Virus record (IMG/VR): IMGVR_UViG_3300011868_000001
Coordinates: 64,001-128,000 of that record
From: a virus
Lineage: Duplodnaviria; Caudoviricetes
Length of the DNA stretch: 64,000 nt
Direction: 5' to 3' (one strand)
This document shows, one piece after another, positions 28,938 through 35,023 of the stretch. The notes beneath the pieces were generated by a model. It was not told the DNA's origin. It was given only the letters and a program-made list of their open reading frames with translations, and did not search any database. Position 1 is the first letter of the stretch. Each line of letters begins with the position of its first letter. The position numbers and the translations under genes are program-made.

Positions 28938-29493
28938 TCACCACTTAAAAGCAGGAGGCAAGCTTTCCAGAGAGGCATCATCTACAGTGGCGCCCGTCTT
29001 TTGAAGCATCCGTTTGAGGTTCTTCTCCCGTTGCTGATCCGAGAACAGGGTGGAAGAATCCCAGCCCCATTGCAGCAGGCCCTGCCGTTGCTTGACATTG
29101 CACTTCTTGTCAGACAGCGAACAACTGGATTTGAGTTGGCCCATGTGCCTTGCTACAAAACTCTTCCAGCGCTTGATCTGCTTATCGTCCTCAGTGCCTA
29201 AACGACGCCCAAGGTAGTATTTGATATACCATTCCCACCAACCTAGCGGGGAGTCTCTGGTTGTCCATCCCTTACGCTGCCATTCTTTCAAAGACTGCCT
29301 GGATTTAATTCCATAGTGATTTATACTCACGTCAGGGTCAGACCCTCGCTTGAGCACTTTCTTGTGGTTTTTTATATTCGGCAGGAATGTCCTGGATGGC
29401 AGAGGTATATATTCCTTCAAATATTCCTTTGTCCAACATCTCCATTGGAGTATACGATGGACAAAAGTCGGGATGCCATAATTTCTTATCCAT
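28938..29493 (-). pseudogene. full-length replacement copy of a conserved hypothetical gene, interrupted by one extra A in an A6 run (29368-29373)
   Basis: Frame 1 MDKKLWHPDFCPSYTPMEMLDKGIFEG...AEYK; frame 2 NHKKVLKR...GWWEWYIKYYLGRR...QIKRW...RQGLLQWG; removing one A restores colinearity with 30204..30479. Confidence 0.7.
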
Positions 29494-30148
29494 TTCCATC
29501 CTCATCTAGCTTTTGGATGAATCTCTTAGCTACTGCTTGCGCAGGCGTCATGCCAGAATTTATCCTATTTAAAATCGTTTGATAAGGTATATCGAACATT
29601 TGTGAGAACTGTTTAATGGACATTTCATTACCGTTATAAATCAATTTACGTGTAGATCGCCTATTATTAGCCTGCTCTAATCGACTGGCCCATCTACAGT
29701 TATCCGGAGAGTACCCTTTGTCATTCTCTATTCTTTCTAAGGTATTACCGCCACAGTTTCCCATGTCCGAGTAAAAGTTTTCAAATGAATTAGTCCAGCG
29801 CGAACATACGGTTATACCACGCCCGCCATATGCGTGATAATTATCTGCGTTTGGATTATTGCATCTGTTTAACATAGCTCTCCATATGCGATATTCTGGA
29901 GAATTGCTCATTCCATGGGTTGTCTTTGTTTCTGTAGCGACCTCTTTATGGTAGCAGCCACAGCTGGTAGTTAAACCACCTTGTAGACTAGCCGCTCTAA
30001 CTTTAACGACGTTACCGCAGATACATGAACAATTCCAGACAACTTCCTTGGAATTAGGTTCTCTTCCAATAACAGTAAGGCGTCCGTAAACAAGACCAGT
30101 TTTATCATGAAATACGCCGGGCTTTGACAAATAACGATTAGGTTCCAT
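29486..30148 (-). CDS. free-standing HNH homing endonuclease (Cys-rich N-terminal domain)
   Basis: GRLTV, WNCSCICG, TSCGC, YGGRGITVCSRW, TLERIENDKGYSPDNCRWA; markedly AT-rich. Confidence 0.9.
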   Translation of the reverse strand: MEPNRYLSKPGVFHDKTGLVYGRLTVIGREPNSKEVVWNCSCICGNVVKVRAASLQGGLTTSCGCYHKEVATETKTTHGMSNSPEYRIWRAMLNRCNNPNADNYHAYGGRGITVCSRWTNSFENFYSDMGNCGGNTLERIENDKGYSPDNCRWASRLEQANNRRSTRKLIYNGNEMSIKQFSQMFDIPYQTILNRINSGMTPAQAVAKRFIQKLDEDGNG

Positions 30149-31505: not shown

Positions 31506-31901
31506 TTAGGCGATCATGGCTGACAGCTCGCTCACGGAGGCGGGCTTGGTCAGTACAACGTGTTCCAGGACGTCATAGCGCTCGTTCTTGAGCAGGCAGG
31601 CGATCATGGAGGCACTGGATTCGTCGCATGGCCGTTTGGCTTCAAGGTCCCAGCCAAAACGTTGGACGATCTTTTCGATGATGGGGTTGTATTTCCGATC
31701 AATGCTGGTCACTTCCACCGACATAACCAATTGATCGACCCCATCGCCTTCTTCATCCAGTTCTGCAGTCTTGAGTTTGACCGCCCCAAGTTCCAGGGCG
31801 TTGCCAAAAGAATCGCCGATGCACATGAACTTGCGCAGCAGCTCTTTGCTCTCAGAATGCTCGTTGCTCAGAACCGGATGGAGAAGAAAATACTGTTGCA
31901 T
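31506..31901 (-). CDS. hypothetical protein (131 aa)
   Basis: AAGGGG SD. Confidence 0.7.
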   Translation of the reverse strand: MQQYFLLHPVLSNEHSESKELLRKFMCIGDSFGNALELGAVKLKTAELDEEGDGVDQLVMSVEVTSIDRKYNPIIEKIVQRFGWDLEAKRPCDESSASMIACLLKNERYDVLEHVVLTKPASVSELSAMIA

Positions 31902-32059
31902 GTGAAGCCCCTTATACAGCGTTCCGTGATATGTGATCGTTACCGATCCCTAGTGTGGCAAGGCGTAGTTGTAATTGCATACTGTAGTCGTATGCTGTAT
32001 TTTTATAATTATCGTGCATAAGTGCCCATTGTCGGCTAAGAAAATGGGCACGGTGCAAG

Positions 32060-32621: not shown

Positions 32622-33047
32622 TCAGCGCACCATTTCCAGACGTTCGGCCAACAGATCACTCAGTGAGCGCATGAGTGATTCTTGCTCACGCAGCTTGAGG
32701 ATGTGTGGACTGACGAGTTCGACCGAATCGAGGTAGGCGATGAGCTTGGACAGGCGATCATCCAGCTGAGCCTTTTCAGCGACCAGACGCTGGACCCAAT
32801 CTGGGCAATCGGACACATCACCCATGGGCAGGTAGGCGCCTTCAAATACAGCACTGGGCGACCAGCTGATGTAACCATCGTGCTTGGGGTGGTTTGGCTG
32901 CCCCCCATCGGTGTACTCAATCAGATAGCCGGTATCTTCCGGATTTTCGTCAGCCGGAATATCCCACCCGCGGTAGACATTGTAGTCACCGCGGGTCATG
33001 GGCGTTGCCTTGATGATCTTGGTACCGACATAGTGCTGCATTGACAT
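32622..33047 (-). CDS. two-domain phage protein (YxGTK...GYISWSP domain plus crAss001_48-like helical domain), candidate anti-defence nucleotide sponge
   Basis: YVGTKIIKATPMTRGDYNVYRGW...GYLIEY...GYISWSPSAVFEGAY and WVQRLVAEKAQLDDRLSKL...QESLM...LAERL. Confidence 0.6.
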   Translation of the reverse strand: MSMQHYVGTKIIKATPMTRGDYNVYRGWDIPADENPEDTGYLIEYTDGGQPNHPKHDGYISWSPSAVFEGAYLPMGDVSDCPDWVQRLVAEKAQLDDRLSKLIAYLDSVELVSPHILKLREQESLMRSLSDLLAERLEMVR

Positions 33048-33162
33048 CTTCCTTGTTGGCTAGTTATAGGCGGGGAGTTCTCGGTAGCCTGTCTTAAGTG
33101 CCGACGGGGAAGGCACGACAGGAACGGGTGTAGATGGGCCCTCTACCGGACCTCCCCTGTTC

Positions 33163-33290
33163 TGGACGTTGTGGACGGGAACCGAAACCCGTTCCTCCTC
33201 AGCAGTGCTTTCACCGCTATGCGGGCGGCTAACTCAGATGCATTGTCCAAGTAACCTTGCTGAGGCGTTCGTATGTAAACTACCACAACG
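33163..33290 (-). ncRNA. tRNA-like RNA with encoded UCCA end and an approximately 53-nt insertion replacing the anticodon loop
   Basis: CGTTGTGG/CCACAACG acceptor, TA, GTTT/GAAC D-stem, CCTCAGCA/TGCTGAGG stem, ACGGG/CCCGT T-like arm, TCCA. Confidence 0.65.
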
Positions 33291-33583
33291 AACTGGGTTG
33301 GGGAATTGCCCAGTAACGCTCACGTCACCCTAGACGACTACTTGACTGTCGGGGCGTGGATACCAGGTACAATTCCCCAAACTGGGAGGAAGGGCCGGGA
33401 CTTAGGCAGTGATACCTGGGGGAGGGTTCCTTGCCGGGCTGCTGAAGGCCCTGCAACTCACTACCCTCACCCCGGCCCTTCCAAACAGGACGGGAGAGTC
33501 GTCCGACTGGTCAAGGGGACCAATCCAGCACCAGTCATCCGATCGCCGTGACGAAATCGGTGGACGGCTCTCCCTAACTGAGA

Positions 33584-33713
33584 CAAGTAGTCGGAGTCGA
33601 ACCGACTGGATACAGGGTATCCACAGCTACCACCCTTCCTGACCCGATGCCGACAATATGGCTCCAGGAAGCTAAGGCCGAATCTCACGGCGAGCACGGT
33701 TAAGCTGTACTTG
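33584..33713 (-). ncRNA. tRNA-like RNA with a canonical T-arm and an expanded central domain
   Basis: CAAGTA/TACTTG acceptor-like stem; GTCGG-TTCGACT-CCGAC T-arm; GGATAC/GTATCC extra arm. Confidence 0.6.
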
Positions 33714-33787
33714 AATTTAAACCGACTGTCGGGACGGCATCCACCTTTACCGCATGCAAGACCTGCACACGACCAACAGTCGAAAAG

Positions 33788-33862
33788 GGTCTCAGTGACC
33801 AGGACTCGAACCTGGGACTTGGCCTACGGCCTTTAGTTCTAACCGACTGAACTACCACTGAG
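33788..33862 (-). tRNA. tRNA-like gene with shortened anticodon arm (pseudo-tRNA or tRNA mimic; GUA in a 3-nt loop)
   Basis: TCAGTGG/TCACTGA acceptor, TA-GTTC-AGTCGGTTA-GAAC D-arm, CCAGG-TTCGAGT-CCTGG T-arm; anticodon arm only GGCC-GTA-GGCC. Confidence 0.7.
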
Positions 33863-33905
33863 CACGAAATGCTTCGAGAGCGTCCAATGATCGGACGCTC
33901 TGTCG

Positions 33906-33935
33906 CATAGATTACATCCCGCTGTACTTTTTTAC
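33906..33935 (-). promoter_or_regulatory. putative middle/late promoter for the RNA array
   Basis: GTAAAAAAGTACAGC...TATG; similar A-tract motifs lie upstream of other minus-strand operons. Confidence 0.45.
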
Positions 33936-33938
33936 GAT

Positions 33939-34397
33939 TTACTTGTCTTCACCGTCTTCGATATAGCGTTCATAGTACTCGACCAGCTTGCGGTAGGTGT
34001 AACGATCAGTCACGCCTTGCTTGATACACGCCAGAGATGAGTCACGACGAACGCCCTGCTCGAAGAGTAGGCTCTCCAAGGTATCGACAACGGTGTATGA
34101 GCGAATCCGTCCTTCACCACAGTTGACGTAGATAAGCCCCTTGTCCTTGTGCTCGTTGACAAAGTCAAAGATCTTCTTGGCCAGTTCAGGCCGCATGCAG
34201 TGGTCGCGCTCATCCTCGCTCATGTGGTCGCCAGGGAAGAAGTCAATGCGCAGCAGTGGGCGATTGTCTTTGTTCGGGATGGCGGCACCGGGACTGTACT
34301 TATCGCTGATGCTGATCAAAGGCGCATCGATCGGAATCTGACCGACTTTCTTCTTACTGATGTTGGTAAGGCGTAGGGTGGTGTTGGGCGTTATCAT
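33939..34397 (-). CDS. Cx5R (PTP/dual-specificity-like) phosphatase
   Basis: IYVNCGEGRIRS P-loop; LISISD; start re-called at MITPN (ATGA overlap). Confidence 0.8.
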   Translation of the reverse strand: MITPNTTLRLTNISKKKVGQIPIDAPLISISDKYSPGAAIPNKDNRPLLRIDFFPGDHMSEDERDHCMRPELAKKIFDFVNEHKDKGLIYVNCGEGRIRSYTVVDTLESLLFEQGVRRDSSLACIKQGVTDRYTYRKLVEYYERYIEDGEDK

Positions 34398-34570: not shown

Positions 34571-35023
34571 TTACTGGGTGGGTGCGCCTGTGGCGCAAAT
34601 GTAGTTGGCTTCAACAAAAGGTAACATCGACAAGTAGACGTACCTGATGTCGTCTTCAAAACTCAGACCGCCGTTACCGCAGCCCATGGGCGGGATGGCG
34701 ATGGTCTTGAATTTATCCGGGTGTCGATTGACCAGGTTTACCAGCTTGTTGAAGTTATGGATCACCAAGTCACGCGGTGACGGGTTGCGCCAGTTCAATT
34801 TGGTGGGCACTAAGAGGTACTTTACCCCTTCGTGCTGATACAGAATGAACTGGGTCGGATCAAGGATGGGGTACATCTTCTTGTAATGTTTGTACAAACC
34901 AGGGATGGTGTCTCGAGCCGTTTTAGCAATCCCGGCGCCCATGGCACCCACCAAATTGATGGTTATGATTACCGTGTCCGCCTCGACACTGAACAAGTCC
35001 TGCTGAACAATCTCCAGGGCCAT
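34571..35023 (-). CDS. macrodomain protein (DarG/Poa1p-like ADP-ribose hydrolase)
   Basis: DLFSVEADTVIITINLVGAMGAGIA, VPTKLNWRNPS, IAIPPMGCGNGGL. Confidence 0.9.
   Translation of the reverse strand: MALEIVQQDLFSVEADTVIITINLVGAMGAGIAKTARDTIPGLYKHYKKMYPILDPTQFILYQHEGVKYLLVPTKLNWRNPSPRDLVIHNFNKLVNLVNRHPDKFKTIAIPPMGCGNGGLSFEDDIRYVYLSMLPFVEANYICATGAPTQ

Follow-up and report, generated by a model that had tools for sequence, protein, structure and literature searches.

The window analysed here, a 64,000-nucleotide (nt) stretch of DNA corresponding to positions 64,001 to 128,000 of the IMG/VR virus record IMGVR_UViG_3300011868_000001, carries an array of predicted structured RNAs on its minus strand. 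Together with a promoter-like motif and a 5' hairpin, the eight stem-closed units of the array (U1 to U8) occupy positions 33067-33933 (Table 1), between a PTP-like gene upstream and a gene encoding a Sequestin domain downstream. The original prediction, made from the letters of the window, had described a hairpin and eight domains, spacers shorter than 10 nt and no credible open reading frame (ORF). All of this was confirmed: the hairpin and the eight units were recovered on the minus strand at the predicted positions, gaps between units measured 7-9 nt, and the small ORFs overlapping the array were frameshifted or stopped in the related loci L007, L008 and L072 (numbers with an L denote individual loci used for comparison), which led us to reject a coding region. 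The source record (253,747 nt, 53% GC, 96% complete) is a phiKZ-type jumbo phage of the DT01-like Chimalliviridae type. Among cultured phages it is closest to Pseudomonas phage pPa_SNUABM_DT01 (baseplate proteins 67% identical, against ~30% for other phiKZ-like phages), and its genes include homologues of phiKZ gp50, gp55 and the nuclear-shell protein gp54 (E 2e-12). ARAGORN found no transfer RNA (tRNA) or transfer-messenger RNA (tmRNA) in the whole source genome.

Table 1 Features of the array and of the loci compared with it (window coordinates unless a locus is named; bp, base pairs)
Feature	Position	Strand	Remarks
Promoter-like motif AAAAAAGTAC-N14-TATG	33906..33933	-	predicted start near G33906
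5' leader hairpin, 11 bp	33877..33901	-	z -6.3; compensatory stem changes, 7 homologues
U1, tRNA-derived RNA, Asp/Asn-type D and T arms	33787..33862	-	Rfam tRNA 41.2 bits; ARAGORN negative
U2, three-way junction, 11-bp closing stem, no CC tail	33722..33783	-	9 homologues, covariation
U3, acceptor-like stem, variable hairpin, T arm (33590-33606)	33579..33713	-	covariation
U4, 13-bp stem, two hairpins, conserved UCACGG loop and C-rich loop, tail GUCC	33488..33574	-	7 homologues, compensatory stems
U5, long stem, inner three-way junction, C-rich CUCCCCCA loop, tail UCCC	33384..33482	-	covariation
U6, 11-bp stem, GAC-A-GU-loop-GU-C-GUC hairpin motif, tail CCCA	33294..33380	-	homologues
U7, tRNA-shaped scaffold, ~50-nt cargo in anticodon arm, ends UCCA	33163..33290	-	cloverleaf is the minimum free energy fold
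U8, three-way junction, UCUA and YCCCGUC loops, tail RCCUA	33067..33157	-	21 matches to model R1, covariation, independent folds
Downstream gene with C-terminal PF21825 (Sequestin) domain	32622..33047	-	Pfam 39.7 bits, above cut-off
PTP-like gene, CGEGR motif, upstream of array	33939..34397	-	synteny anchor
tRNA scaffolds with anticodon-loop hairpin	L079 7035-7145, L084 7509-7620, L086 7337-7455, L088 7445-7555		also L103, L104
Hammerhead-like cores	L060 955-1040, L063 845-920, L090 5515-5610, L107 6770-6845, L062 3625-3707		missed by Rfam
RNA following hammerhead	L060 1045-1210, L090 5615-5800, L107 6850-7045, L063 920-1095		
AAUGCGAG unit family	L078 5900-6000, L089 9575-9655, L107 8330-8415, L060 1318-1403		
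Candidate kissing loops	L006 16445-16560, L062 1470-1580, L064 1330-1420, L106 5480-5586, L107 5480-5585		

Covariation in homologues was regarded as the decisive evidence for the array. Syntenic loci from about 20 related genomes were collected via the flanking PTP-like and baseplate genes, and homologues were found for every unit. Among U5 homologues, 92.5% of alignment cells were paired and 18 of 32 pairs showed two-sided change; the corresponding values were 91.5% and 12/23 for U2 (nine homologues), 96% and 11/29 for U3, and 91% and 17/23 for U8 in a model-fitted alignment. The paired fraction was reached by none of 500 shuffles, and slid registers gave 26-59% pairing. The conservation in syntenic loci on which the original prediction had been staked was thus borne out, U2, U3, U5 and U8 covarying across relatives. 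Because stem lengths differ among U8 members, a raw MAFFT alignment gave RNAalifold 3 pairs; single folds and the model-fitted alignment were used instead, and 18 of 19 members folded independently into the same three-way junction. U8 was the most conserved unit of the array.

Folding energies pointed in the same direction with less force. The units folded singly gave z-scores from -1.5 (U3) to -4.4 (U5) against dinucleotide shuffles, and the whole 896 nt gave -7.1. Three 280-nt array tiles scored -12, -24 and -12 kcal versus shuffles, compared with a window mean of -4.4 +/- 6.8 and with -25 for the best window tiles. We therefore treat stability by itself as suggestive, because the array tiles do not stand out from the best ones in the window and the global fold mispairs U3, U7 and U8. 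In the global equilibrium fold of the full precursor, U2, U4, U5 and U6 were closed at p~1 and U1 at ~0.7. Collectively, the comparative data indicated that the array region is non-coding and under structural selection, and that it is a real, conserved and modular set of predicted new small-RNA families.

The units differ in how closely they approach a tRNA. U1 shares the acceptor, D and T arms of canonical tRNA (RF00005) and ends in ACCC; a 4-bp GGCC hairpin with a 3-nt loop stands in place of the anticodon arm. The loop of this hairpin differs in the L009 homologue and is therefore not an anticodon. Decoys for anticodon nucleases had been among the roles proposed earlier, and without a 7-nt anticodon loop U1 would make a poor one. 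U3 and U7 share acceptor and T arms with tRNA. The scaffold of U7 consists of an 8-bp acceptor, a D arm and a T arm with an 8-nt loop, the T stem showing a compensatory change in L007/L072. U3 has no D arm and bears a portable cargo of ~75 nt (about 33625-33700) that includes a T-loop-type hairpin, CCG-UGAGAUU-CGG (33678-33690). Canonical tRNA was rejected as a description of any of the three, given the 3-nt loop of U1, the 50-nt insert of U7 and the missing D arm of U3. The earlier view of all eight units as tRNA-derived or tRNA-mimicking thus stood for the shape of U1, U3 and U7 (3/8); no tRNA ancestry was seen in the other five.

A hairpin motif in U6, GRC-A-GY-loop-GY-M-GYC (window 33333-33350), recurs in the arrays of L006, L007, L009, L072, L079, L085, L088 and L103, with one or two copies per unit in related modules, often two. 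This recurrence is suggestive of a repeated protein-binding site.

The comparison with related loci supported an origin of the array from a phage tRNA operon, as originally predicted, because the same promoter-like motif heads the tRNA operons of relatives and because U2, U3, U8 and U1-type scaffolds adjoin canonical tRNAs there. The promoter motif AAAAAA(T/G)(T/A)AC-N14-15-TATG had 6 matches in the source genome vs 0.55 in shuffles, and it was found in front of arrays or tRNA operons at 19/26 related loci. The motif resembles phiKZ middle/late promoters. Phage 201phi2-1 uses a middle promoter for its tRNA (PMC11512511). In the corresponding region of L079, L084-L088, L103, L104, L106, L107, L089, L090 and DT01, stem-closed non-tRNA units alternate with canonical tRNAs (Tyr, Asp, Asn, His, Gln, Ser, Thr, Leu). 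U2 lies within the tRNA operons of L086, L103 and L104, and U3 and U8 lie between tRNAs in L090 and L107. In several relatives U8 forms part of a short array ahead of Sequestin, and the tRNAs make up a second array after it; both arrays open with the promoter motif of the window. A GGCC hairpin is also the insert in the anticodon loop of relatives' tRNA scaffolds, and U1 looks like a collapsed form of these in which the hairpin has replaced the anticodon arm. The inserted hairpin of these scaffolds is ~45 nt long and intron-like in position, although no sign of splicing was seen, and the scaffolds have a 1:72 mismatch and an ACCC end. Most of the canonical tRNAs retained in L079, L084-L088, L103 and L104 belong to the set with GUN anticodons (Tyr, Asp, Asn, His), with Gln in addition.

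The same comparison showed that the predicted units are gained, lost, duplicated and reordered as modules. L007 has two copies of U5 and neither U1 nor U3, L009 lacks U3 and U7, and in L066/L067 the stem of U5 was kept and its cargo deleted, both being retained in L068. Such behaviour as separate modules fits release as separate RNAs. At L008 13333-13851 (also in L056), the place of U1 is taken by a 172-amino-acid ORF that contains G-x-G-K-S-T, has no Pfam match and is flanked by the 5' hairpin and a truncated U2. A further conserved unit family, AAUGCGAG...UCGGAAGC...CUCGCGCCUA, is often found immediately 5' of U3.

Cargo of the array was also found outside this group of phages. Six uncultured contigs with a GC content of 41-45%, and Vibrio phage CHOED, contained nhmmer matches to the ~75-nt 5' domain of U3 (E 1e-7 to 1e-12). 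All six contigs carry it inside tRNA clusters and without a T arm, the plain stem being clearest in L126; none of the ORFs at these loci match the source genome. Because the U3 cargo sits on different carriers in unrelated phages, cargo and carrier are exchangeable across phage lineages.

The U8 model had a single site in phiKZ, at 263189-263257 (+) between PHIKZ288 and PHIKZ289, with a modest score (23.5 bits, E 0.01 for the genome). This site has the closing stem, a CCCGUCCG loop and an ACCUA tail, and it lacks the second hairpin. Its GC content is 61% within an AT-rich genome, a TATG stands 21 nt before it and a hairpin resembling a terminator comes after it; about 45 phiKZ-like records share the site with at least 99% conservation. 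The loop-plus-tail signature did not occur in 30 random genomes of phiKZ size. The phiKZ site thus appears to be a reduced, stand-alone U8 unit, and it may be among the 17 phiKZ candidates in PMC10914365. A literature search that covered few subscription papers returned no paper naming the site or describing RNAs at PHIKZ288/289, and none on such arrays in jumbo phages. A U8 pattern scan of IMG/VR gave 10 matches within the clade and 3 chance matches, and model R1 had none in 12 more distant, mostly incomplete records. What appears to be new here is the U3 cargo on a plain stem in the tRNA clusters of unrelated phages and the reduced U8 in phiKZ.

Non-tRNA RNAs of this general kind have been known for decades in T4 and T5, so that the arrangement does have precedents, the original prediction having known of none in phiKZ-like phages. 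The T5 genome (AY543070) has annotated stable RNAs of unknown function (RNA I, III, IV, 1, 2, 2H, 3 and X) that, like the units of the array, are back-to-back RNAs of 70-170 nt within a phage tRNA cluster. RNA III, IV and 2H are plain long-stem closures, and RNA 1 and 2 are tRNA shapes with an enlarged arm, similarly to U7. T5 differs in having retained its tRNAs. T4 RNA C has, like U3, a hairpin and a T arm at its 3' end; T4 has just two such RNAs (RNA C/D, rnaC/rnaD, or species 1 and 2) vs eight modules here, and their accumulation has been demonstrated experimentally, whereas that of the array RNAs is a prediction from sequence. The T4 species I and II share their precursor with eight tRNAs (PMC2330249), late accumulation is on record for RNA C (PMC9697503), and the role of RNA C/D remains unexplained (PMC9697503, PMC3014915). 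When U2-U8 were compared with T4 rnaC/rnaD and the T5 RNAs by nhmmer and models R1 and R2, no match beyond generic tRNA arms was found. The array would resemble the stable RNAs of T4/T5-type tRNA clusters by location and architecture, on which its membership rests: its non-coding units, each tRNA-like or closed by a stem, are separated by short spacers, and location in a tRNA cluster is provided by the relatives, where U2, U3, U8 and U1-type units occur among tRNAs behind the same promoter motif.

Other known RNAs were considered and rejected. Rfam identified U1 as tRNA (41 bits) and gave a sub-threshold tRNA-Sec match on the T arm of U3 and nothing more in the window; tRNA-type matches were also the only ones when nine related loci were added. 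A known single-RNA family, an outcome that the original prediction had named as speaking against it, did not emerge. blastn of the array against cultured phages returned tRNA arms only. tmRNA (RF00023) and Y RNA/YrlA (RF02553) share mimicry of the acceptor/T-arm half of tRNA. There were no RF00023 matches in the genome, with positive controls and with ARAGORN also at zero, and no RF02553 match in the window at E<=5; no gene for Ro60 (TROVE) was seen among the neighbours scanned, a whole-genome search not having been made. GOLLD and ROOL are also phage non-coding RNAs found near tRNA islands, with a total length similar to that of the array. They differ in being single long RNAs with a fixed domain order, whereas the modules of the array shuffle, and Rfam gave no match to either. 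Likenesses to CCCGUC in 16S rRNA h44, the twister-sister loop, T-box, SRP and the type I-F repeat had no Rfam support.

The 3' ends suggested how the units might be processed. An NCC followed the closing stem in 37/51 curated units and NCCA in just 6/51; encoded CCA was found in 37/39 canonical tRNAs of the same loci. Tails in the array are mostly NCC(U/C); U6 and U7 encode a 3' CCA, and U1 and U3 do not. The 3' NCCA named in the original prediction is accordingly the minority form, and a fixed helix of 12-13 bp was not seen either, closing stems ranging from 8 to 18 bp across homologues. Encoded NCC(U/C) rather than CCA suggests that the processing pathway is used and that aminoacylation for decoding is not. 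Since RNase P pairs with a 3' RCC, and its substrates include pre-4.5S RNA and phage RNAs (PMC4919922), stems that start with G and are followed by an NCC tail could plausibly be cut by it. The spacers of the array are AU-rich and resemble those 3' of real tRNAs in the relatives.

A hammerhead core with a GUC/GUU site precedes a large unit in four relatives, and such cores are candidates for a second route of cutting the precursor. The cores are type I hammerhead-like, with CUGANGA or CUGAAUGA, one extra base on each side of stem II, and GAAAC; a CAUCG/CGAUG pairing is conserved and may form a pseudoknot, and the L062 copy is cut or degenerate. The core of the clade (CUGANGA/GAAA, NUH site) was absent from the source genome and Rfam had no ribozyme match in the window; a pattern scan of IMG/VR gave no matches with a pattern too strict for the known L090 variant. 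The RNA 3' of each hammerhead is conserved over ~170-200 nt (ACGG...GGAUUAGUC...AACCGUACG...GACUAAUCC...GCAGCCGU). It may contain a long-range pseudoknot, and one segment of it, GGUGCUGGAUUAGUC, is similar to U4 of the window.

The Sequestin gene lies directly 3' of the array in most relatives, not all. The distance from U8 to its start is 20 nt in most relatives, and a terminator scan found no terminator between them in the window. The Sequestin family (PF21825) comprises sponges of 3' cyclic ADP-ribose (3'cADPR) that block type I Thoeris (10.1101/2025.07.12.664507), and the product of the window gene is a putative anti-Thoeris sponge.

On balance we favour the explanation that the locus is a remnant tRNA-type operon whose non-tRNA RNAs were kept after the canonical tRNAs had been lost, and whose RNAs are released as decoys or ligands. 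The tRNA-type operon of the clade would have lost all canonical tRNAs while the non-tRNA stable RNAs stayed. A single middle/late transcript made by the phage RNA polymerase would begin at TATG, span the array and run on into the Sequestin gene. Host enzymes of the RNase E type might then cut this precursor at the short U/A-rich spacers, RNase P would mature the 5' ends of G-starting stems as it does with pre-4.5S RNA, and trimming would leave the NCC tails. It seems quite likely that host tRNA-maturation enzymes release about eight stable RNAs of 60-130 nt in this way. Each RNA would consist of a carrier, either a plain stem or a tRNA scaffold, and a conserved cargo fold; the homologues showed the two to be exchangeable. 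We tentatively suggest that the released RNAs act as decoys or ligands for host RNA-binding proteins (for example translation factors, or defence effectors or sensors that target tRNA elbows or ends) and belong to a counter-defence transcript. This role was ranked first because of the invariant loop and junction bases, the T-loop-type hairpin of U3, the anticodon-less tRNA elbows and the link with Sequestin.

Several observations weigh against this explanation. U2 and U3 have no CC tail, and U3, U7 and U8 close at p~0.55 in the global equilibrium fold, competing with long-range alternatives. The covariation counts come from 6-20 related sequences without correction for phylogeny. In L089, L090 and L107, tRNA-like units and not Sequestin come after U8, and a counter-defence role is argued from gene neighbourhood and analogy.

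Nearly invariant loops could also point to base-pairing regulators, in which the C-rich loops of U4, U5 and U8 would pair with G-rich Shine-Dalgarno or other sequences to tune host or phage translation. The single-stranded CUCCCCCA loop of U5 and the YCCCGUC loop of U8 agree with this, and C-rich seeds are known in small RNAs of the RNAIII/RsaE type. The loops, however, are 7-9 nt long within three-way junctions, and other invariant positions (UCUA, the T-loop, junction bases) suggest tertiary folds, which makes regulation by base pairing rather unlikely.

Two further alternatives are less probable still. The proximity of U8 to Sequestin and the missing terminator would be expected if the array stayed a single uncut RNA, or acted as a riboswitch or structured leader that governs Sequestin, and 9-10 nt complements exist between units. 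These complements are near the estimated chance level (4 seen, about 1.6 expected), the units are gained, lost and reordered independently, and no Rfam match was found. A cis leader was rejected for want of a fixed position, U8 also preceding the tRNA-like units of L089, L090 and L107 and being followed by a terminator in phiKZ. Alternatively, the RNAs could assemble, partly by kissing loops, into an RNA or ribonucleoprotein complex (virion, nucleus or cage-like). In L006, L062, L064, L106 and L107 a 5' hairpin loop, CGCCGUGA, is complementary to the UCACGGCG loop of the next unit, with a compensatory change in L064 (10 bp), the same 9-nt complement exists in U3/U4 of the window, and GOLLD and ROOL, located near tRNA islands, form cages (PMC12286853). 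Part of the U3 complement nevertheless sits in a conserved stem, UCACGG is retained in L007 and L009 despite the missing U3, and variable unit content is hard to square with a fixed assembly; an excess of inter-unit kissing over chance was not demonstrated in the window. That the units are functionless, decaying tRNA pseudogenes is scarcely credible: U1 is clearly tRNA-derived, tRNAs have been lost from the genome and some relatives have truncated units (U2 in L008, U5 in L066), but compensatory changes between genomes with flanking proteins 40-70% identical, cargo conserved in unrelated phages and five units without tRNA ancestry already largely refute it.

If the array is indeed what remains of a tRNA operon, its RNAs are not passengers of tRNAs, since they stayed under structural selection after the loss of every tRNA. 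Several covarying families of the locus have no entry in Rfam 15, and carrier and cargo are seen moving independently between unrelated phages. This bears on the stable non-tRNA RNAs of phage tRNA clusters, including T4 RNA C/D and the T5 RNAs, which are still described as of unknown role. A distinctly more doubtful extension is that phages trade aptamer-like RNA cargos on tRNA or plain-stem carriers, freed by host tRNA maturation, to neutralise bacterial immunity. If true, the traded cargos would bind defence proteins or even signalling nucleotides, as an RNA counterpart of the co-transcribed Sequestin sponge. Cultured test systems are Pseudomonas phage DT01 for U8, phiKZ and close isolates for the reduced U8, and Vibrio phage CHOED for the U3 cargo.

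Other features of the neighbourhood were recorded. A weak Macro-domain protein (window 34571-35023, minus strand; Pfam 19.1 bits, below cut-off) is encoded two genes upstream of the PTP-like gene, and with Sequestin it may form an ADP-ribose-related counter-defence neighbourhood. An HNH endonuclease gene (window 29486-30148, minus strand), within a low-GC (39-42%) stretch and not in the relatives compared, is probably a mobile insertion. L007 and L072 carry a second RNA array, which the window lacks, at the place of window 31900-32010 (minus strand). In the window this place holds a conserved element of ~100 nt with 2-3 small hairpins, immediately upstream of a gene for a 131-amino-acid protein; also present in L007, L058, L072, L109 and L110, it is a candidate cis-regulatory RNA.
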